A model generated the notes under the pieces. It saw only the letters and a program-made list of their open reading frames with translations. It was not told the DNA's origin and made no database searches. A stretch of DNA of 64,000 nt. Origin: Amphiura filiformis (Eukaryota). The stretch lies in the NCBI RefSeq assembly GCF_039555335.1, contig NC_092647.1:18756946-18820945 (forward strand). The letters are read 5' to 3'. Position numbers and translations under genes: made by a program. Below, piece by piece: positions 4,173 through 63,110 of the stretch; position 1 is the first letter of the stretch, and the number at the start of each line of letters is the position of its first letter.

Positions 4173-4335
4173 GGCTGTGACACCGTGACTTCTCTTTAGT
4201 CCGAAGGGTCGCTAGTCTGAAGGTCCTCTAATCCGAAGTCGCTAGTCCGAAAACCAAATTAAGGTTGCTAATCTGAAGGTTCTCTAGTCCGAATATAGAA
4301 TAAGGGTTAGTGTTTGGGTTTAAAGTTAGGGTTTC

Positions 4336-4367
<32 letters not shown>

Positions 4368-4601
4368 CGAGCCTTATTCTATATTCGGACTAGAGAACCT
4401 TATTCATTATTTGGACTAGCAAACCCTCGGACTAGAGAACCTGATATTCGGACTAGAGAACCTGATATTCGGACTAGCGAACCTTGTTCAGAATTCGGAC
4501 TAGCGAATGGTAAATTATGTGTTCGGACTAGCGAACCTTCGGACTAAGGAGCCTTTGGACTAGGGAACCTTCTGACTAGAGAGTTGTCACCTGTGACACA
4601 G
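4173..4601. mobile_element. Hairpin element with an interstitial telomere-like (TTAGGG)n core and GACTAG(C/A)GAACC subrepeats
   Basis: TIR ggctgtgacaccgtgac / gtcacctgtgacacagc. Arms hold repeated tagtccgaa / ttcggacta units. Centre 4300-4370 is gggttagtgtttgggtttaaagttagggtttcgggttagggttagggtttagggttagggttag. Confidence 0.55.
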
Positions 4602-11239: not shown

Positions 11240-11800
11240 ACATCCGAGGACTGGAGGAGGATCAGATGTATAAATTTAAACTGGAATAGTCCATTGGAGT
11301 AGGACCTGATCTGCATTCTTACAATGAGTAGATAACTATGTTACTTTGTAATAATAAATCCAGAGGATTGGAGGAGGATCAGATGTATAAATTTAAACTG
11401 GAATAGTCCATTAGAGTAGCACCTAACCCACATTCTTACATGTACAATGAGTATGATACTATGTTACTTTGTAATAAAAAATCCTGTGAATTGGAGGAGG
11501 ATCAGATGTATAAATTTAAACTGGAATAGTCCATTAGAGTAGCACCTAACCCACATTCTTACATGTACAATGAGTATGATACTATGTTACTTTGTAATAA
11601 AAAATCCTGTGAATTGGAGGAGGATCAGATGTATATATTTAAACTGGAATAGTCCATTAGAGTAGGACCTAACCTGCATTCTTTCATGTATAATGAGTAT
11701 GATACTATGTTACTTTGTAATAAAAAATCCTGTGAATTGGAGGAGGATCAGATGTATAAATTTAAACTGGAATAGTCCATTAGAGTAGGACCTAACCCAC
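11240..11800. repeat. Intronic minisatellite: ~120-bp unit x about 5
   Basis: Repeated unit ggaggaggatcagatgtataaatttaaactggaatagtccattagagtag.acctaaccc.cattcttaca...actatgttactttgtaataa.aaatcc. Confidence 0.7.
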
Positions 11801-11864
11801 ATTCTTACAATAACTATGTTAATTTGAAATAATAAATCACATCCCTACTTAATCTTCTCATCAG

Positions 11865-34696: not shown

Positions 34697-34870
34697 CACC
34701 CCGTTAGTCCGAAACCCTGTCAGTCCGAATCACCGCTAGTCCGAATTTTAAGCTTACCTAACGCTAACCCTAACCCTAAACCTAACCCTAAATCTAACCC
34801 TAACCTGAAAAATTCGGACTAGCGGTGGTTTCGGAATGACAGTGTTTCGGACTGACGGGTAGACCCCGAA
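34697..34870. mobile_element. Second hairpin element with a telomere-like (CTAACC)n core and TAGTCCGAA subrepeats (intron 22)
   Basis: ccccgttagtccgaaaccctgtcagtccgaatcaccgctagtccgaatttt...ctaaccctaaccctaaacctaaccctaaatctaaccctaacctg...aaattcggactagcggtggtttcggaatgacagtgtttcggactgacgggtagacccc. Confidence 0.55.
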
Positions 34871-39235: not shown

Positions 39236-39959
39236 TTGTTACTGCAGTTATTATAAAAGTAGATTATGTTTAATAAAATTGCTTATTACAGAAGTTACAA
39301 CTTGTGAAGTCAGGTTTGATGTATTGGTAGCCAGGGTACTGTATAATTGTATATTTTTGCTGGGTTCATTTTTTTCGCCATTTGATCAATTCTGGACAGT
39401 TAAGTGGGTGTTTAATTTGTGTTTCCAAATATAATCACATTAACGGTGGTCTTACCTTGGAATTATGGAAATATTTGGGCCTCATAACTGCTAAACTGTT
39501 GGTTTAAAGTATATAAAAGTAATAGCAAAGACTTGATGAATTCATTTGTGAGGTCAAATTTTGGCCCAAAATGCTCATTTTTTGAGATAATCCCCAAACT
39601 ACGTAACAAAACAAGAGCGATAACCGCACCATAGCTGAACCATGTGGCTTCAGCAGTATATTGTGGTAGGCCTATACCACTATCACCCGGAGTCTATAAT
39701 GGACATAATCTTGAAATGCTACGAAGGTATGGCCGCCCGAGTGGTGATAATGAAAGAGGAAAAGTGAAGAATATAAAATAAACTAGAGCAACTGTGCCCT
39801 TTACAAGGACACAAGGTAAGTTTGATTACTCTAACGATCTGATCAAGCAGCAATACTGTGCTGGATAGTATTAATTTTAATAAGACTGTTTCAGTCTGTA
39901 AATGTAAATTCATTAATTGCCGTTTTAATATACCTTGAACGTGGAAAGCTGGCATTTTG

Positions 39960-40500
39960 AAAACTGGACTTTTGACCTCTGTATGACACCCTTAATGGCC
40001 TTAAATGAATTTTAAAATATTTTCAACATGTTTAGAATGTCATAAGGATCATTGCGTTTAAATTTCAGCTCAATCGGAGCATTTTGGAAAACTTGACCTT
40101 TGACCCCTTTAGGACCCCTTAATGACCTTAAATGAATCTTAAAATGTTTTTAAAATGTTAAGAATGTCATAAGGATCATTGCATATAAATTTCAGCTCAA
40201 TTGGAGCATTTTGAAAAACTTGACCTTTGACCCCTTTAGGACCCCTTAATGACCTTAAATGAATTTTAAAATATTTTTTAAATGTTTAGAATGTCATAAG
40301 GATCATTGCATTTAAATTTTTTTAATTTCAGCTCAATTGCAGCATTTTGAGAACCTTGACCTTTGACCCCTTTATGACCCCTTAATGACCTTAAATTAAT
40401 TTTTAAAGGTTTTAAACATGTTTAGAATGTCATAAGGATCATTGCATTTAAATTTAAGTTTAATCGGAGCATTTTCAGTTAAAATGACCTTTGTGACCCC
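39960..40500. repeat. Satellite: ~120-bp unit x about 4.5
   Basis: Unit tgacctttgacccctttaggaccccttaatgaccttaaatgaattttaaaat.ttttaaaatgtttagaatgtcataaggatcattgc.tttaaatttcagctcaat.ggagcattttg.aaaacttgacc. Confidence 0.8.
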
Positions 40501-42959: not shown

Positions 42960-43530
42960 ACTATGATCCAGTGTGCATGCAAGCAGTTGGTCATTGCGCT
43001 ATCTGCTCCTATAACAAGTAGGTCATCAATGCGAGCTAATGCGCTATCTACCGCTGATAGCAAGTAGTTCATCAATGCTCTATCTACTGCTGATAGCAAG
43101 TAGTTCATCAATGGCCTATCTACTGCTGATAGCAAGTAGTTCATAAATGCCATATCTACTGCTGATAGCAAGTAGTTCATCAATGCTCTATCTACTGCTG
43201 ATAGCAAGTAGTTCATCAATGGCCTATCTACTGCTGATAGCAAGTAGTTCATAAATGCCCTATCTACTGCTGATAGCAAGTAGTTCATCAATGCTCTATC
43301 TACTGCTGATAGCAAGTAGTTTATCAATGTCCTATCTACTACTGATAACAAGTATTACATCCAAGCACTTTCTACTCCTGATAGCAAGTAATTCATCAAT
43401 GCGCTATCTACTCCTGATAGCAAGCGGGATAGCAAGTAGTTCACCAACGCGCCATCTACTGCTCGATAGTTCATCAATGCTCTATCTACTGCTGATAACA
43501 AGTTTAAGTCGTTCATCAAAGTGCTATAAG
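42960..43530. repeat. Minisatellite: 42-bp unit x about 13 (CTATCTACTGCTGATAGCAAGTAGTTCATCAATGC(T/C)C)
   Basis: Open ORFs on both strands (42932..43351 minus, 43255..43686 plus) are repeat artefacts with iterated LLSAVDRALMNY / LLLIASSSSM peptides. Confidence 0.85.
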
Positions 43531-53790: not shown

Positions 53791-55399
53791 CATAACATTT
53801 TTTGAAAAAATGGCACTATAAATCAATGTGCTGCTTTTAGGGCGCTAGCGCGTGAAACCCAAAGTCTTACTTAAAAAGAAACCAAAAAAATGCACATGTG
53901 GCATGATCTGGTCCATGGAAGTCAAAGGAGGCATTTTTGAGTTATTATAATCATAATTTTATACAAACATTATACTGAAAACACTGAAGATCTAGCATAC
54001 TTAGTTCTAAAGTTATGTGGTGCCTATTTTCTTATGTATTTTATTGTTTTTCACTTCATATTTTTGCCTTTTTCTTAATTTCAAATTTGCCGCCTTTGGC
54101 CCCATGGACCAGCTCGTGTTACGTATAGTTTTCAAATATCAATTCAAATGTAGCTTTGTAAGTTAGCTTTACACAACACGTCAGATCTTTTCGGATATAG
54201 TTTTATAAAAAAAACTATACCTCTCCTTTGTTTTAAGGACGAGATCCACTGCTGACTAGTGAATACTGTCTTCTTCAGGCCATTCACGGAAACAACGCAG
54301 CTGTTTGCCTATTGGATCGACTGCCGTATCTTCAGTGGACCAAGTGCGGGACCAAGTGGGACATCCAAAATCAGCAAGGCAGAACAGAAGACCCAGAAAT
54401 GAATGTTGAGACTTTGCTGTTAATAAATCTTTTTCATCTGAAATTATCAGTGGTTTTACTTTGAAAAAAAAATAAAGAAAATATATCGAAATTACTCACA
54501 ATCCCTTTCAATAATAAATATAGCTTCTGGTGATGTCATCTGACTATTATTTTGTAAAAGTAAAATCACTGATAATTTCAGCAGTGGTCGTTTCTTGATG
54601 CAGTCAACACAAATGACTTTAATGATAATGAACATGGTAAATGTTATATGTAGACCATATGTATATCTCAGCCCAATTTGGGTGCAATTGTGTCAACACC
54701 CAGTTTAGATTTGGACAACACAACAACTTTTTTAGTGTATGAACAAACATTTTCATAGAGCACGTTATTATTACATATTTGTTTGTTTTTGGTTTAGGTT
54801 TTTTTTGGGGGGGGGGTAGGTATTTTTTGTTGGTTTTAAACGAATTTTATTACGACGCTGCGTGTGATCATTTTAGCCTATCTGACGGTAATCAAATGTC
54901 TTAACATTAACCTTCACATGTATGTTACTCAACACTACACTATGCAACTTTACGACGTTGTGACAACGTTAAATGACGTGTGAGTGTGTGTTACTCGGTT
55001 AACCTTAATCCCTAACCATAACCTTAACCATATGGCACTGTAACAATAACCCTAACCTAACCATAAAACTGCAACCACCATTAGCACGACTTATTAGGTC
55101 CGTATAAACAAAGGCGTAGACCGGGTCTAAAGTTAGACCTGGTTTAAGTGAAATTTAGTCCCAGGAGAAAGGACATTTTCCTTCACATTTGCTTAATTTA
55201 TTTTGTATTATTTTTGAACTTTGAATTTAAATCTATAGAATTTGCTAGCTACTTATGAAAGAAATAAGAGTAAAGGACCATTCCTTATGGAATTCCACTT
55301 AGACCAGGTCTCCTTTGTGCACTTTGTTCATGTCAACGTTTTGCACTTCACTCAATGTATTTCGTCAACCCACCCCTACATACGTAAATTTTAAATCGG

Positions 55400-58300
55400 A
55401 AATAATAATGATTAAAATGATCACGCATTTGCGCACTTTTAATTGCGATTTACGCGAGTAATTAAGTGAATATTCATGAGATCATATAAAATGAGAATAT
55501 TCATGAGGTAATGTCATAATGCGAATATTCATATGAGGGCAAGTATGCTAATAGTCATTAGGTAATAAAAATATAATATGATAGTGAAAATGTTTTACAT
55601 TAAAATATTAATCGTGATAAAACCACACAATTCTGAAGTAAATTGAACAAATGTATTTTATAGGAGTTGCGTGGTTTGTGTGATTGCGGTGTGTATTTGA
55701 TGGAATATTATCAATATTTAAATATTTATAAATATTTTTAAAAATCAAATTTGTATGAATATTCCAATTTATATATTCAAATATTTAAGAATATTCCATT
55801 TTTTAAATATTAGTTTCAATTCTTATAATGTCAATAATATCCAAAAAATGTGAATATTCCTAATATTTTAAAATTCACGAAATGATTCAACTTCATTTTG
55901 TATGAATATTCAAATTCAAATTCAAATTAGAAATTTAATATTAAAAATCGTAAAAATTTGAATATTCATAATTGAATATTCATCAAACTTGAATACTCGT
56001 TTAAATTTGATTAAATACAATGGATAAAAATTGAATATTCAAAGAAAAAAATAAAATTTGAATATACAATATTTTCATAATTATTGTTTCATCAATTTTT
56101 ATAATGCAATTTTACGAATTCTAAATTTAAATTTAGATTTAGATTTAGATTCAAATTTAGATTTAGATTCAAATTTAGATTTAGATTCAAATTTAGATTT
56201 AGATTCAAATTTAGATTAAGATTCAAATTTAGATAAGATACAAATTTAGGTAAGATACAAATTTAGGTAAGATCTAAATTTAGGTAAGATTCAAATTTAG
56301 GTAAGATTCAAATTTAGGTAAGATTCAAATTTAGGTAAGATTCAAATTTAGGTAAGATTCAAATTTAGGTAAGATTCAAATTTAGGTAAGATTCAAATTT
56401 AGGTAAGATTCAAATTTAGGTAAGATTCAAATTTAGGTAAGATTCAAATTTAGGTAAGATTCAAATTTAGGTAAGATTCAAATTTAGGTAAGATTCAAAT
56501 TTAGGTAAGATTCAAATTTAGGTAAGATTCAAATTTAGGTAAATTTAGATTGGATTCGAATTTAGATTAGATTCGAATTTAGATTAGATTCGAATTTAGA
56601 TTAGATTCGAATTTAGATTAGATTCGAATTTAGATTAGATTCGAATTTAGATTAGATTCGAATTTAGATTAGATTCGAATTTAGATTAGATTCGAATTTA
56701 GATTAGATTCGAATTTGCATCAGAATTTGCATCATTAAAATTTAAAATTTGCATATATTAAAATCCAAAATTTGCATAAAATCTAAAATTTGCATATCAT
56801 TAAAATTTAAAATTTGCATATCATTAAAATTTAAAATTTGCATATCATTGAAATTTAAAATTTGCATATCATTAAAATTAAAAAATTTGCATATCATTAA
56901 AATTAAAAAATTTGCATATCACTAAAATTAAACAAATTGCATATCACTAAAATTTAAAATTTGCATATCATTAAAATTTAAAATTGGCATATCATTAAAA
57001 TTTGCATATCATTAAAATTAATTTTTTTATATATTAAAATTTGCATATCATTAAAATTTAAAATTTTCATATATTAAAATTTGCATATCAATAAAATTTA
57101 AAATTTGCATATCATTAAAATTTGCATATCATTAAAATTTAAAATTTGCATATCATTAAAATGTGCATATCATTGAAAATATATGACGTCATCTCATGAA
57201 TATGCAAATAAATGACGTCATCGTATGAATATGCAAATGAATGACGCCATTATATGCAAATGAATGACGTCATCGTATGAATATGCAAAATGATTGACGT
57301 CATCGCATGAATATGCAAATAAATGACGTCATCGTATGAATATGCAAATAAATGACGTTATCGCATGAATATCCAAATAAATGACGTCATCGTATGAATA
57401 TGCAAATGAATGACGTCATCGCATGAATATGCAAATAAATGACGTCATCGTATGAATATGCAAATAAATGACGTCATTGCAGGAATATGCAAATGAATGA
57501 CGTCATCGTATGAATATGTAAATGAATGACGTCATCGTATGAATATGCAAATAAATGACGTCTTCGCATGAATATGCAAATAAATGACGTCATCGCATGA
57601 ATATGCAAATAAATGACGTCATCGTATGAATATGCAAATGATTGACGTCATTGCATGAATATGCAAATGAATGACGTCATCGTATGAATATGCAAATAAA
57701 TGACGTCATCGCAGGAATATGCAAATGAATGACGTCATCGTATGAATATGCAAATGAATGACGTCATCGTATGAATATGCAAATAAATAACGTCATCGCA
57801 TGAATATGCAAATAAATGACGTCATCGCATGAATATGCAAATAAATGACGTCATCGTATGAATATGCAAATAAATGGCGGCATCGCATGAATATGCAAAT
57901 GAATGGCGTCATCGCATGAATATGTAAATGAATGACGACATCGTATGAATATGCAAATAAATGACGTCATCGCAGGAATATGCAAATGAATTACGTCATC
58001 GTATGAATATGTAAATGAATGACGTCATCGCATGAATATGCACATAAATGACGTCATCGCATGAATATGCAAATAAATGACGCCATCGAATAAATATACA
58101 AATAAATGACGTCATCTAATGAATATGCAAATAACTTTCATCTCGTGAATATATAAGTGACGTCATCTCATGAATATGTAAATATAAATGACGTCATCGC
58201 ATGAATATGTAAATAAATGACGTCATCGCATGAATATTCAAATAAATAACGTCATCTCATGAATATACAAATAAATGACGTCATAAATGATAGAATATTT

Positions 58301-58950
58301 TATAATATTCATAAATTTTGAATGCTGACTTTTGAAATATAAAAATTCTTAAAATTCTAATAATTAATTTCCTTTTAAAAATTGGATGGAATATTTATGC
58401 AGATAAATATTTTTGTATGATATATGGACCAAACCACACAACTCTCGAATACATTTGTTAAATTTACATTTATGCTTAATTATCATGCTTAATATTTCAA
58501 TATTTAATATTAATTATTATTTGATGACTATTTGAGATCAAGGGGAAAATTGCCCAAAGTTGACTAAATTGTCCAAAAACGACTGACATTTCACAAAATT
58601 GCATAAAGCTGCCTTGTCCATTTTGATCGACTTTCGGCAACTAATAAGCTCTAATAGTGACCACGGCAACAACCTCCGCTAACTTTGAGCACATGTTCGC
58701 AAGGTGGCGCAATTTTGAGTAATTTTGAAAACAACTTTAGGCAATTTTAAGTAATTTTAAGTAATCTTGTGAAACTTTTTGACAACTTCGGGCACTTTCC
58801 CCCGTGACATGGGCCTTATTTGCAAACATGATATCATGACTATTTGCCCTCAAAATTAGTGAATATCTTTGTGAATATTCAAAAGTCGGGTATGACATAA
58901 CCTCATGAATATTCATTCACATCATTATTCGCGTAAATCGCAAGTTCCGA
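55400..58950. repeat. Complex satellite block, in order: ATGAATATTCAT-motif repeats (55400-56100); three different 17-bp arrays (56110-56220, 56220-56545, 56545-56710); a ~24-bp array (56710-57180); and a 30-bp array x about 37 (57180-58300)
   Basis: Units ttagatttagattcaaa, aatttaggtaagattca x about 19, atttagattagattcga x about 10, catatcattaaaatttaaaatttg x about 18, and aatgacgtcatcg(c/t)atgaatatgcaaataa x about 37. The array is bounded by inverted atgaatattcat motifs. Confidence 0.9.
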
Positions 58951-61900
58951 TTTGAAATTTGATAGTTTTATTTGGTACATTGAGTCAAGTACAAGACGTC
59001 AACGTGAACTTCACAGTCGTGCCAGTGTAGTGGTAATTGTAGTAAGTTTCGTGCTAATTGTAGTAAGTTTTGTTAATTTTGTTAATTCGCCATATAATAC
59101 ATATAATATATATTTAATGGCAAATAATTAAAATACAGTCTTCGAAGTAAACTTTATAAATGTAGTGATATGTTCCAGTCTTCGAAGTAAACTGTATAAA
59201 TGTAGTGATCAATATATACTTAAAAGTAAAAGTATATAATTTATGTAGCTGGGATGAAAATCTGATGATCAATTTCGCATTAAAGATATGAATTTTTTCC
59301 CCAAAACACAAAAAAGCACAAAGAATAGAGGTATTTTTGATTCAAAGTTAAATTGCAAAACACTGGTGATAAAGTATGTCGATCTCATGTGTTGCATAGT
59401 TGTGTCATTATGAATATCAATTAGCTAATTTGCATAATTTTGCCCGAAATCCCGTTAATCCATTCTGTAGCCTACACGCGATCACCGAACTGCTAACATG
59501 GTTTTTGCTGTTATTTGCACATTTATGAATATTAATTACCATAATTTGCATATCTGAAGGTGAATTGTATTTGTCAACTAAACGTAAAAGAAAACCTCTT
59601 TCCAACCTGGACAATGGGGTATATATCAAAATCTATGCACCAGTTGTTACAGTTAAGGAAACGGGAAAACATTCAATTGTTAGGTCCTAGGATGTAAAAG
59701 CAATTTTCTTTCATAATATTGTATAGACGAATCCAATTTCACGCATTCCTACTCCTCAATGGCAATCAATTGGATAAATATTATCAGGTGGTAATAAATT
59801 TGCATTGGACAATAGATTACTATATAATGGTTTAGTACTGCATATATCGGTTTAATCTTCAGTAAGCGGGTTTATGGCTGGAAAGGTCACGGTGAATATG
59901 CCGTGGACGACACTGCACTATGTCATGCCTAAAGTTGTTTTATTAGAAGCTTAATGATGGTTGGCCAAACATTAAATGGAGTGCAAAGGTCCCGTAATTA
60001 GACGAATATGTTTGGTGCTTTATTTGCGCGTTTTAGCGTACCGGAAAACAATGTCATTTATTTAAAACACGAGAGTTAACATGCTTAAGAAGACAAAAAA
60101 CACGTCAATACCTTAGGTTCTGGATGAATAAGAAGAAAAATGGCCTAAATACATCTCACGCTAGCTTTATTCTAACAATATGAAGAGCATACAAAGATTT
60201 TGTAGCACCTGTTACAAGAAAGACGATTTATGTCAATAGTAAATCTCAAAGGAATCGAGTTATTTCAGTCAATCTCAAAAATAATATTATCTAATTACTT
60301 CTGCAATTCATAAGCCCGATCTATTAGGTTAGAATCTATAATAAATTACTGAGTTTGGCGAATTGGTAAGAATAAAAACTTATACAGTTTACATTATTTT
60401 GGAAAACGGATTTTTGCATTACGTAGAGTAAGGTTGTCCGCACCCCAATAAAACGTCTTTGTTTTTGTTTACGTTAATGGTGTCAAATAATGTTAATTAG
60501 TTTAAAAAGCACTGAAAGCTCCCTGCGCGCTAAAACTTTTCACGCCAATACAATACACTAATGTTGACATAGCCAGAAATAGGCCTTCTGTCCTGTCATC
60601 AGTGTGAAGATAATATGCCTGTAGTCTCAACTATTACATGACACAGTAGAAACTCAATAAACATCTATTGTTTATTCAACTAATTTGTCAACATTAGCAT
60701 GTATTCTGTGTTCAGCAGTGTCTGTTTTTATGGAGAACCTATAGTCAACAGTAGAGTGTTTGTTTATTGAATTAATTTGTAAGTGAAGCTTTTGAGTTGA
60801 AGGAGAGATTAATCAGGGTTGCCAATTGGTAACCCAAATGGGTGACTTTTGAACAATTTCCCTGAGACTTCCCATAGGAACAGATCATGGTTAAGAAAAA
60901 AATTGGGTGACTTTTCAGCAATGCAGGTGCAAGTCTGGTAAGGATAAGTAGTGGATGTCTTGAAAGCCTACATTTATTCAACTAAGGGACTGGCTCGGAG
61001 AGGGTTTGTCTGATACAGGAGCAGCTGACAGGTAATTTGTGTCTGTGCAAAATATTTAGGCCCATGCGGAACGTAAGTGTCCTACAAAATTTATTTTGAT
61101 TGTTCTGAGACTGCACTTCAAATTGCGCTGCATCAGGTGAAATTGCACCACAACTTGGGGTGCACCCCAAGGTAACAAAATAAACTCAAATATTGAAATT
61201 GCTTCTGACCTTCTCAATTGTAATTCTAAATGACAACATCCTCTCACCTCACTAATCACATTAAATAGAACATTTAAAAACAAATTATATAAAATATCAG
61301 TACCGCGAAAGACGGTGACCGCGAAAGACGGGTGACTGCTAGTATAAATAATATTGCACTTTACAAATATTGAAATAGAAATTTAATATCTTTCACCTGT
61401 TCATTTTTTGTTAATTTTCAGCTCAGGGAATCTAATCTAAGAAAAATAAGATAATTATTGTTCAAACACCGGAACAATTAAGATCTGCCATTCGTGTTAG
61501 TTCGACACCAAGCATTCATAGAATTTTACTTTATTTTAGTTAAAGTTGAATGTCCCGGGGTAAGATGGTTATCTAAACTCGGCAGCGCTAAAAGGAGTGC
61601 GCAGAAGGTGGGCCCACGATTAGACCAATGCGCTTGATGCTTTGTTTGCGTTTTAACACATCCGTTTATAAGGGATCAACCCCTGGAGCCCAACCGCTCA
61701 AGTTTGACGACAAGTTAAATAATCTAGATCTAGTTCGTGTCGTCAAACTGCACGTTACTTTTAGTATGTTCAGGGTGAATTACCGTGAAGGGTGTGTACA
61801 AACTGTATATCGACGAACGAAGAATAAAGAATAATGGATGAATTTAAATCGAAGGACAAACGTGGAACTGACCTTTTTTAAATGATTATACAAATAATCA

Positions 61901-62039: not shown

Positions 62040-63110
62040 AGCCCTTAGACATACAGGCTGAGTCAAAAAGAAGTAAACTCATGTTTGAGGGTCTGCAACT
62101 CGAGATTTGTAAGAAAACTGCTAAAAATGAAAATACCACTGGAAAGAGCAAATTCTACACGTCTTAATAAAAAAAAAAGAATTGTTGCAATTGCTCACAG
62201 CAAACTCAAGTTATACTCATTTTAATAAAACCACCCATTTTTGTAGCTGCACACGGTTACACTTTCTAAGTAGGGGCCTACCTATTTATATTGATTGGTA
62301 AGACGCGATATTCAAACGCAAATAAAGTTCTGTGGCAGGTGTGGTTTCGATCAATAATTCCTACATGTTAAAGGGCTCTTTTCAATATGAATTTTACCTC
62401 ATTGCACTACATTATAATAAAACGGGCCAAATGACAACATGGTACCACACTTTACCGCACGGGAACGCACGTTTCTGTCGACGAAGTATCATGAAACTAA
62501 GAGTCCCGCTGAAGTTCAGCATCTTTTACGTCTCCGATTTCCTAAAGCTAACCGGGTTTCATGTAAGGGAGCAGTATATAAGAATGTGAACAAGCTCAAT
62601 GTGCATGGGACACTAAGGAACATACAGCCGGAAGCGTCAGGCAGACCACGGACTGCTAGATTAAAGTGAACATTGCTAGAGTTAGACATGCGTTACAGCA
62701 AGACCAACGATCAGCTCAATCCTTTACCCAACATTCCGCAATCGTTCGTAAAGACTTGAAATTGGTATCCCTACAAACTATAGTACCGTCATGGACTTTC
62801 TTGAATATTAATTCAAAGCAAAAGTTGTCTTTTCAACAATAAATCCTGTTAGCACTTTGCTGATTCATCGAAATTAAAAAGCTTTGAAATGGATGAAAAT
62901 CAATCAGCCGTGTGCAGCTACAAAAATGGGTGGTTGTATTCAAATGAGTATAACTTTGGTTTGCTTTGAGCATTTGCAACATTTCCTCTTTTTATTTAGA
63001 CGTGTAGAATTTGTTCTTTCCAGTGGTATTTTTATTTTTAGCAGGTTCCTTGCAGATCTCGAGTTACACCCCCTCAAACATGAGTTTACTTCTTTTTGAC
63101 TCAGCCTGTA
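62040..63110. mobile_element. Nonautonomous transposon remnant: ~210-bp inverted repeats (62040-62250 and 62900-63110) flanking an ORF that encodes a DUF4817-like transposase HTH
   Basis: catacaggctgagtcaaaaagaagtaaactcatgtttgagggtctgcaactcgagat...ccacccatttttgtagctgcacacgg against its reverse complement ccgtgtgcagctacaaaaatgggtgg...ctcgagttacaccccctcaaacatgagtttacttctttttgactcagcctgta. The internal ORF 62439..62669 reads HFTARERTFLSTKYHETKSPAEVQHLLRLRFPKANRVSCKGAVYKNVNKLNVHGTLRNIQPEASGRPRTARLK. Confidence 0.5.

Follow-up and report, generated by a model that had tools for sequence, protein, structure and literature searches.

The 64-kb window analyzed here (the whole stretch of DNA) harbors, at about 55340-58997, a ~3.66-kb element with inverted arms of ~200-240 bp, and the five short-unit tandem arrays at this locus form its interior. 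The initial annotation had missed this main structural fact, namely that the arrays lie inside a transposon-like element with inverted-repeat ends, whose subterminal motif gave rise to them. The element is surrounded by unique intergenic DNA rich in CpG, with an APAF1-like gene some 25 kb away, and our ORF scans recognized no exon or gene start within about 20 kb. Across about 55340-58997, no arm, inner domain or array overlapped an ORF of at least 60 aa, indicating that the element is non-coding, and neither Rfam nor tRNA scans of the window gave a match. The features, from left to right, are as follows.

55332..55339, plus strand: candidate target-site duplication GTCAAC(GT), left member of the direct-repeat pair
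55340..55685, plus strand: left inverted-repeat arm (flanking domain), from the arm alignment and the outer block
55468..55532, plus strand: subterminal 27-bp repeat, 2.4 copies, carrying GAATATTCATGAG (TRF period 27; 96% pairing with 58891-58914)
55700..56124, no strand: AT-rich inner domain, 16% GC, with many TGAATATTCA palindromes (composition and motif scan)
56128..56709, plus strand: three stepwise-related short arrays, 18 bp CAAATTTAGATTTAGATT, 17 bp CAAATTTAGGTAAGATT and 17 bp CGAATTTAGATTAGATT (unit listing and TRF)
56713..57180, plus strand: 21-unit mixed array (24/17/25 bp) ATTTGCATATCATTAAAATTTAAA (unit listing)
57182..58284, plus strand: 29-bp minisatellite AATGACGTCATCG(C/T)ATGAATATGCAAAT(A/G), ~38 units with an 8-unit (232-bp) higher-order duplication
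58285..58429, no strand: right-side AT-rich inner domain (weak inverted similarity to 55589-55912; composition)
58430..58534, minus strand: right inverted-repeat arm, inner part (pairs with 55550-55678)
58535..58835, no strand: nested insertion of 301 bp, MITE-like, with its own inverted repeat GGGGAAAATTGCCCAAAGTTG (11-bp duplication ATGACTATTTG on either side)
58836..58997, minus strand: right inverted-repeat arm, outer part, with TATGACATAACCTCATGAATATTCA, the best match to the 29-bp unit
58998..59005, plus strand: candidate target-site duplication GTCAAC(GT), right member of the direct-repeat pair
Element termini: TTTGCACTTCACTCAATGTA / TACATTGAGTCAAGTACAAG
Sequence around the candidate duplication, in the predicted empty-site form: CACTTTGTTCAT-GTCAAC(GT)-GAACTTCACAG

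Inverted arms, flanking repeat and palindromic core

Alignment of the arms (55443-55678 against the reverse complement of 58943-58430, with the insertion removed) yielded a local score of 125, compared with 25.7 +/- 3.5 and a maximum of 38 in 200 dinucleotide shuffles. The arms were ~80% alike, with many indels. An outer inverted block at 55326-55359 paired with 59009-58976, and extension of the inverted repeat past 55326/59009 was not significant, its score of 32 equaling the shuffle maximum. The 11-mer ATGACTATTTG was located at 58524 and 58836, and taking out the nested 301-bp segment rendered the two arms colinear; this insertion is foreign to the original element. Just outside the arms, in the same orientation, lie the only two occurrences of GTCAACGT in the 64-kb window on either strand (55332 and 58998). 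This direct repeat is partly self-complementary and can alternatively be assigned to the inverted repeat, as its outward continuation; it reaches 9/10 if extended, and register shifts give lengths of 6-10 bp.

The block of arrays had previously been described as bounded by palindromic motifs. This held for the 10-bp core TGAATATTCA, which recurs on both sides, but not for the 12-mer ATGAATATTCAT, which occurs singly, at 58905. All eight perfect copies of TGAATATTCA in the 64-kb window fall between 55467 and 58915, inside the element, and with one mismatch allowed we counted 49 matches against 7.5 expected, including 39 in 55467-58915. Within the left inner domain, the core is perfect at 55903, 55959, 55973 and 56032 and carries one mismatch at 55756, 55851 and 56059. 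Pairs of ATGAATAT/ATTTGCAT around 24.2-24.4 kb were dismissed as chance occurrences.

The candidate target-site duplication, being ambiguous, is also what would be expected of a local palindromic minisatellite cluster that was never mobile, in which arrays prone to slippage grew from a short AT-rich palindrome and the arms from an ancient inverted duplication at the locus. Such a history would likewise accommodate the diverged, indel-rich arms, the presence of one copy only in the window and the searched collections, and the directly visible in-situ growth of the arrays. We nevertheless consider it unlikely, given the DNA-transposon-like order of the locus (inverted subterminal repeats in the arms, a non-coding interior and a direct repeat exactly at the inverted-repeat limits) and the confinement of every perfect TGAATATTCA of the window to the element.

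The 29-bp minisatellite and its shorter neighbors

The largest array was placed by TRF at 57177-58284, with a period of 29, 38.6 copies, 87% matches and a score of 1615; about 38 units follow one another head to tail, far beyond the chance level. It is a genuine 29-bp minisatellite of ~38 units. A tandem array had indeed been annotated at 57180-58300, and its presence stands well above chance, but the period of 30 assigned to it does not agree with the TRF value of 29; the 30-mer then proposed counted a shared A twice. Every copy had been said to hold a perfect CRE, TGACGTCA, and an octamer, ATGCAAAT, 8 bp apart. We found perfect copies of these motifs in 28/38 and 26/38 anchored units, respectively, with a spacing of 10 bp (unit columns 11-20), or of 3 bp when counted over the border between units. 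The description of the array as highly homogeneous requires qualification: units are ~91% identical to one another, but columns 14 (C/T) and 29 (A/G) are dimorphic and an 8-unit higher-order repeat is superimposed. This repeat appears at a lag of 232 bp as a duplicated 8-unit block with 97% identity, which supports growth by unequal exchange. In the window as a whole, TGACGTCA occurs 31 times against 0.64 expected, with 28 of the 31 inside the array, and ATGACGTCAT makes up a perfect 10-bp palindrome. The first unit, at the left edge of the array, contains CTCATGAATATGCAAAT, the Ig VH heptamer-octamer.

Comparison of the units with the arms revealed a common motif. The signature motif (CTC)ATGAATATTCA is repeated in both arms in inverted orientation, and the arrays consist of variants of it plus flank. 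Against the paired arm motifs, the 29-bp consensus matched 18/24 positions on the left (2/100 shuffles reach this) and 19/24 on the right (0/100). Its best left-arm match falls in the 27-bp subterminal repeat, whose GAATATTCATGAG is the probable proto-unit, inverted, of the 29-bp array. The units at the array edge (CATCTCATGAATAT...) are nearer to the arm motif than the central units, and the least variable block of the 29-bp unit, ATGAATAT, is the core of the element itself.

For the other four arrays, unit lengths of 17, 17, 17 and 24 bp had been reported; the periods that we found were 18, 17, 17 and 24/17(/25) bp. The 18-bp array comprises about 4 copies, the 17-bp array of CAAATTTAGGTAAGATT about 17, mostly identical, and the 17-bp array of CGAATTTAGATTAGATT about 9. 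Transitional units connect each 17/18-bp variant with the next, and the 17/18-bp arrays grade into the 24-bp array. The latter contains 17 perfect ATTTGCAT, that is, octamers in the opposite orientation, which had been overlooked. Read in reverse complement, the core of the 29-bp unit matches that of this array (ATTTGCATATTCAT versus ATTTGCATAT-CAT), such that the two arrays have a ~14-bp core in common, inverted, with differing unit lengths. The 17/18-bp arrays have no partner in the right half, leaving the two halves asymmetric.

Motif variability and CpG state

Across 33 full units, with the two dimorphic columns excluded, we counted 10 changes in the 8 CRE columns, 9 in the 8 octamer columns and 11 in the 11 other columns, a comparison of low power that is confounded by homogenization. 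The CRE and octamer columns were as variable as the linker, and motif-specific constraint was not detectable. The octamer is, moreover, one substitution from the palindromic core of the element (TGAATATTCA to TGAATATGCA).

The regional CpG observed/expected ratio was 0.9-1.0, compared with 0.4-0.6 in the neighboring gene body, and reached 2.31 in the array itself. Transitions affected 2/136 CpG sites in the array versus 13/782 other sites, revealing no deamination excess, and the CpG of the CRE was unchanged across the 33 full-length units. By this CpG-decay proxy, the CRE CpG probably escapes germ-line methylation, although a young array would also be consistent with the data. CREB binding requires an unmethylated CpG in the CRE, and the lack of deamination excess, together with the CpG-undepleted domain, predicts that the sites would be bindable in principle.

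These observations bear on a functional interpretation, in which the CREs and octamer-type sites would recruit bZIP (CREB/ATF) and POU factors and the array would serve as an enhancer cluster or factor sink. The density of motifs is extreme, with about 28 perfect CREs (TGACGTCA at 31 versus 0.64 expected in the window) and about 43 octamer-type sites (26 plus 17 in the opposite orientation), many of them within a composite (C)ATGAATATGCAAAT site of the POU-dimer type; CTCATGAATATGCAAAT is present in the first unit, and the CpG-undepleted setting without transition excess would also suit such a role. In addition, ATGAATATTCAT is classed as a variant MORE site (PMC4576985), and copies of its 10-bp core occur at several points in the element. 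The motif positions, however, are conserved no better than the linker, the octamer differs from the element core by one base, and ORF scans recognized no exon or gene start within about 20 kb. Because the copies were amplified from one unit, the ~28 CREs and ~26 octamers are not independent evidence of regulatory function, and a post hoc match to well-known motifs would be expected fairly often for an AT-rich palindromic unit. We regard such a platform as highly improbable. The fallback reading in the initial annotation, of a satellite that merely contains the motifs, is favored by the single-founder amplification, the 97% block duplication, the absence of motif-column conservation and the one-base distance between octamer and core.

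Searches for further copies

BLAST detected no second copy of the arms or arrays in the rest of the 64-kb window. The exact 26-mer TGACGTCATCGYATGAATATGCAAAT gave 0 matches in JGI metagenome contigs, IMG/VR viral contigs and GTDB genome contigs, and the arm pattern gave 0 matches in viral contigs. A relaxed three-copy core pattern returned at least 120 matches in metagenomes; those listed were unrelated and at chance level, and the best among them (L067) was a coding MMNMQNQMP repeat. Full-text literature queries with the 29-bp unit in either orientation and with the 17-bp unit gave no account of the present repeat. An ENA metagenome contig from a related species (L001) carries the orthologous gene region (WD40 exon match 80%; exons 77-86% nucleotide identity); the element motifs are absent from this contig, which ends short of the orthologous position.

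The higher-order structure and homogeneous units of the minisatellite might also be expected of an outlying fragment of a genome-wide, high-copy (e.g., pericentromeric) satellite family, and transposon-derived satellites dispersed as short arrays are well documented (PMC4079207, PMC9659126). At the present locus, however, the array is only 1.1 kb long, is surrounded by unique, CpG-rich intergenic sequence and sits between arms homologous to its unit, and the metagenome, viral and genome collections, which do not include the source genome, gave no match. This origin appears very unlikely.

Discussion

Taken together, our analysis leans toward a foldback-type non-autonomous DNA transposon, or a relic of one, with an expanded minisatellite domain, in which the 29-bp array is the largest of the internal tandem-repeat domains. 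The layout proceeds from inverted arms of ~200-240 bp through AT-rich inner domains to the arrays, each of which appears to be an in-situ expansion of the element's own motif. The arms are ~80% alike, compared with mostly identical 17-bp units and a 97% 8-unit duplication, from which we infer that the arrays grew later, in place, via replication slippage and unequal exchange once arm divergence had begun. The CRE TGACGTCA and octamer ATGCAAAT may have been in the founder unit already, or may have arisen via one or two substitutions, and would then have been passively multiplied. If Galileo and other DNA transposons are a guide, the motif repeated in the arms is most likely a putative binding site for an absent transposase.

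We also note the points that count against a transposon: a single copy was found, the duplication is ambiguous, the halves are asymmetric, and no transposase or superfamily is assignable.

Among known systems, foldback elements offer the closest set of parallels to weigh. In Drosophila FB, the arms carry 10-, 20- and 31-bp repeats with a period growing inward, which resembles the present 18/17/17/24/29 series. Tetris and other foldback elements combine a flanking domain, a derived tandem-repeat domain, a middle domain and an 8-10 bp target-site duplication with no ORF (Dias et al. 2014; PMC4079207). The long inverted arms, arm-derived tandem repeats, non-coding middle, asymmetric arms and satellite-seeding potential of Drosophila FB, Tetris of D. 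virilis and Galileo of D. buzzatii all resemble the present element (PMC4079207). In Galileo, tandem repeats within the terminal inverted repeats bear extra transposase-binding sites, and Tetris TIR-220 has a 37-bp stretch in common with its flanking domain (PMC4079207); the corresponding unit-arm match here is 19/24, and the candidate duplication measures 6-10 bp against the 8-10 bp of Tetris. Tetris differs in its 220-bp units, far longer than those described here. The present element departs from foldback elements in that its arrays are not mirrored (only the ~14-bp core is inverted), its arms are ~80% alike, and one copy but no autonomous partner was found.

The tandem-repeat MITEs (pearl/CvA of bivalves; Xmix/Xstir and miDNA4 of Xenopus) are likewise non-autonomous and inverted-repeat-bounded, with an expandable internal array capable of seeding satellites (PMC9659126). 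They are usually a few hundred bp long and contain one array of about 80-170-bp monomers, in contrast to the 3.7 kb, five arrays and 17-29-bp units seen here. Helentrons have short subterminal inverted repeats only, a 3' hairpin and no target-site duplication, and a Helentron/HINE identity was ruled out by the arms of >200 bp and the flanking direct repeat. The likeness of the Helentron/HINE (DINE-1-like) group to the present element lies in non-autonomy and internal (central) tandem arrays (PMC9659126).

At the level of single motifs, the element resembles composite POU-dimer sites and the palindromic CRE TGACGTCA through sequence identity of the 12-mer at 58905, the 10-bp core at the other sites, CTCATGAATATGCAAAT and ATGACGTCAT. 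The variant MORE ATGAATATTCAT ranked first among the de novo motifs in class III POU ChIP-seq and is bound by Brn2 and class IV homodimers in vitro (PMC4576985), and CTCATGAATATGCAAAT lies within oligonucleotides tabulated next to PORE-type duplexes (PMC3488415). Here, the likeness is one of sequence alone, and the setting is a tandem array with a site spacing of 29 bp, not a promoter or enhancer. It is a long shot that the transposon-borne array, which would bring ~38 composite sites for bZIP factors (ATGACGTCAT) and POU dimers (ATGAATATGCAAAT, MORE/heptamer-octamer type), together with 17 octamers in inverse orientation, into germ-line-unmethylated intergenic DNA, would act as a real binding platform, either as a host enhancer or sink or as part of an element family using host POU/bZIP factors at TGAATATTCA-type repeats.

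The locus exemplifies a known process, the birth of tandem arrays from the subterminal repeats of DNA transposons. Its illustrative value lies in the full series present at one locus: arm motif, 27-bp proto-repeat, 17-, 24- and 29-bp arrays, and higher-order duplication. If the family were abundant and its arrays occupied by CREB or POU factors, it would show a transposon spreading ready-made clusters of composite binding sites through an invertebrate genome.

Array structure and motif content

Our Tandem Repeats Finder analysis revealed a minisatellite at 57177-58284 (period 29, 38.6 copies, 87% matches, score 1615), and the perfect CRE in its units, TGACGTCA, occurred 31 times in the whole window against 0.64 expected. 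The tandem array with CRE and octamer motifs described in the initial annotation is therefore real and non-random. Its period is nevertheless 29 bp rather than 30 bp, the junction A having been counted twice in the proposed 30-mer. When the array was cut at its own anchor (n = 38), 33 units were exactly 29 bp (consensus AATGACGTCATCGCATGAATATGCAAATA), one was shortened to 23 bp, two measured 30-31 bp, one carried a 22-bp degenerate insert, and the final unit was truncated. Both motifs had been assigned to every copy at a distance of 8 bp, whereas the CRE was perfect in 28 of the 38 units, the octamer ATGCAAAT in 26, and the spacing inside one unit was 10 bp. The first unit contained CTCATGAATATGCAAAT, which we take to be the Ig VH heptamer-octamer, as a likeness of sequence only. 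Oligonucleotides containing CTCATGAATATGCAAAT have been tabulated beside PORE-type duplexes (PMC3488415).

Arrays neighboring the 29-bp array
18-bp array, unit CAAATTTAGATTTAGATT, about 4 copies
First 17-bp array, unit CAAATTTAGGTAAGATT, about 17 copies, mostly identical
Second 17-bp array, unit CGAATTTAGATTAGATT, about 9 copies
Mixed 24/17/25-bp array, unit ATTTGCATATCATTAAAATTTAAA, 21 units, including 17 perfect copies of the opposite-strand octamer, ATTTGCAT, overlooked in the initial annotation

An inverted-repeat-bounded element

All five arrays lie within a structure of about 3.66 kb (approximately 55340-58997), here called the element, which is bounded by inverted-repeat arms at approximately 55340-55685 and 58430-58997.

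Paired and repeated segments of the element
55443-55471 with 58915-58943, inverted pair, 90% (inverted-repeat scan)
55495-55518 with 58891-58914, inverted pair, 96% (same scan)
55638-55657 with 58448-58467, inverted pair, 95% (same scan)
55326-55359 with 59009-58976, outer block of the inverted repeat
58535-58835, 301-bp segment splitting the right arm
58524-58846, span including the 11-bp direct duplication ATGACTATTTG on either side of that segment
58542, GGGGAAAATTGCCCAAAGTTG, inverted terminus of the segment, pairing with 58783-58802
55332 and 58998, GTCAACGT, direct orientation, immediately outside the arms

The 11-bp duplication and the inverted termini mark the 301-bp segment as a later MITE-like insertion; no further copy was found within the window. 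After its deletion, 55443-55678 was colinear with the reverse complement of the right arm, with a local score of 125 (200 dinucleotide shuffles: 25.7 +/- 3.5, maximum 38), and no significant inverted pairing extended outward of 55326/59009. The two GTCAACGT copies, the only ones in the window on either strand, are a candidate for a target-site duplication, 6-10 bp long according to the register chosen; partial self-complementarity of the stretch keeps this evidence from being decisive. The arrays thus belong to a larger unit, a non-coding element of about 3.66 kb in which the five arrays are enclosed on each side by an AT-rich inner domain and, outside that, by an arm. No ORF of at least 60 aa lies inside it.

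This architecture agrees with that of foldback-type elements as summarized for Tetris, which comprises a flanking domain, a tandem-repeat domain with a stretch common to the flanking domain, and a non-coding middle, generates target-site duplications of 8-10 bp, and is able to seed satellite arrays (PMC4079207). Tandem repeats within Galileo arms provide additional transposase-binding sites (PMC4079207), and arrays arising inside MITEs and Helitrons are well documented (PMC9659126). Arms of >200 bp and a direct repeat on their flanks make membership among the Helentrons unlikely.

Origin of the 29-bp unit

The left arm contains 2.4 copies of a 27-bp repeat based on GAATATTCATGAG, and the right arm contains the mirror motif TATGACATAACCTCATGAATATTCA. 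The top match of the circularized 29-bp consensus in each arm fell exactly on this pair, at 18/24 in the left arm (equalled in 2/100 shuffles) and 19/24 in the right arm (0/100), whose orientation it shares. Edge units are arm-like (CATCTCATGAATAT...), whereas central units read CATCG(C/T)ATGAATAT. The 10-bp core TGAATATTCA of the 12-mer ATGAATATTCAT occurred eight times, all between 55467 and 58915; the octamer is one substitution away from it (TGAATATTCA to TGAATATGCA), and the unit at 58216 retains the TTCA form. The 24-bp array has the same core as the 29-bp unit in inverted orientation (ATTTGCATAT-CAT compared with the reverse-complemented 29-bp unit, ATTTGCATATTCAT), so that the two arrays of greatest size are oppositely oriented on either side of a junction near 57180. 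Transitional units link the 17/18-bp arrays stepwise and lead to the 24-bp array via CGAATTTAGAT to GAATTTGCAT. Given these arm matches, the shared core, and the graded transitions, all five arrays look like derivatives of a single motif family belonging to the element.

In the reading that we consider most likely, with moderate confidence, the 29-bp array is an internal minisatellite domain that expanded within a non-autonomous DNA transposon of foldback-like type, or within what is now a relic of one, and the CRE and octamer copies multiplied passively. Neither the window nor the searched metagenome, viral, and prokaryote-genome collections yielded a second copy of the arms or arrays, which limits assignment to a family. 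A local palindromic minisatellite cluster that was never mobile appears unlikely, and an outlier of a genome-wide satellite, itself compatible with a transposon origin, more unlikely still.

Two motifs of about 30 bp, TTATGAATAT(C/T)AATTA..TAATTTGCATA, lie just beyond the right arm, 115 bp apart (59408-59445 and 59523-59560). They use the ATGAATAT / ATTTGCAT vocabulary of the arrays and may be a further, degenerate piece belonging either to this element or to another.

Genomic surroundings

The window is eukaryotic, with a GC content of about 36%, and contained no long ORFs, tRNAs, or Rfam matches.

Features outside the element
4921-31650 (about 4.9-31.6 kb), + strand, multi-exon APAF1-like gene
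4303-4579 and 34698-34830, short interstitial telomere-like (TTAGGG)n-type runs, opposite orientations, about 30 kb apart
11252-11809, 30857-31355, 31739-32045, 33837-34157, 39952-40475, and 43038-43424, further tandem arrays in and downstream of the gene, units of 36-176 bp (e.g., 123 bp x 4.6, 87 bp x 5.7, 36 bp x 10.8)
62439-62669, + strand, 76-aa ORF

One exon of the gene matched Pfam APAF1_C, a helical domain (1.3e-08), and many WD40 exons follow. The sole relative found for one WD40 exon was ENA metagenome contig ERZ25070167 ctg384448 (80% amino-acid identity), an orthologous gene region with exons at 77-86% nucleotide identity; the element's motifs are absent from this contig, which ends short of the orthologous position. 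Each telomere-like run adjoins 16-26-bp repeats of the TTCGGACTAG(A/C)GAACC type, and the two may be copies of a repeat-carrying element bracketing much of the gene. The region is generally minisatellite-rich. The 76-aa ORF, which in our judgement resembles the N-terminal helix-turn-helix of a mariner/Tc1-type transposase, had no Pfam match at E <= 0.01.

CpG observed/expected was bimodal, at 0.40-0.60 over 1-40 kb, including the gene body, and 0.9-1.0 over 44-64 kb, the undepleted compartment in which the 29-bp array is located. Such bimodality characterizes the mosaic methylation of gene bodies in the germ line of many invertebrates, and it suggests that the APAF1-like gene or a methylated domain ends near 40-44 kb.

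Array growth and constraint

At most unit lags the 29-bp array showed a self-identity of about 0.907, which increased to 0.936 at lag 8, and 57380-57611 was 97% identical to 57612-57843, an eight-unit segmental duplication of the kind made by unequal exchange. If the arms were alike at origin, their present likeness of about 80%, compared with the identity of most units in one 17-bp array, argues that the arrays kept expanding in place.

Transitions affected 2/136 CpG sites and 13/782 other sites in the 29-bp array, and the CRE CpG was unchanged in all 33 full-length units; the array's CpGs thus show no sign of methylation-driven decay, as would be expected if they were unmethylated or if the array were young.

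ATGAATATTCAT, found exactly once (58905), is a variant MORE by sequence resemblance only; this variant was the top de novo motif in class III POU ChIP-seq and supports homodimers of Brn2 and class IV factors in vitro (PMC4576985). Across the 33 full units, with two dimorphic columns set aside, the CRE had 10 changes over 8 columns, the octamer 9 over 8, and the remaining columns 11 over 11, the least variable stretch being ATGAATAT. Motif columns were thus as changeable as others, and selection specific to the CRE or octamer was not detectable in this low-power comparison. A functional bZIP/POU binding platform seems improbable, the least probable of the readings considered. Overall, we regard the locus as an ordinary case of modest interest.
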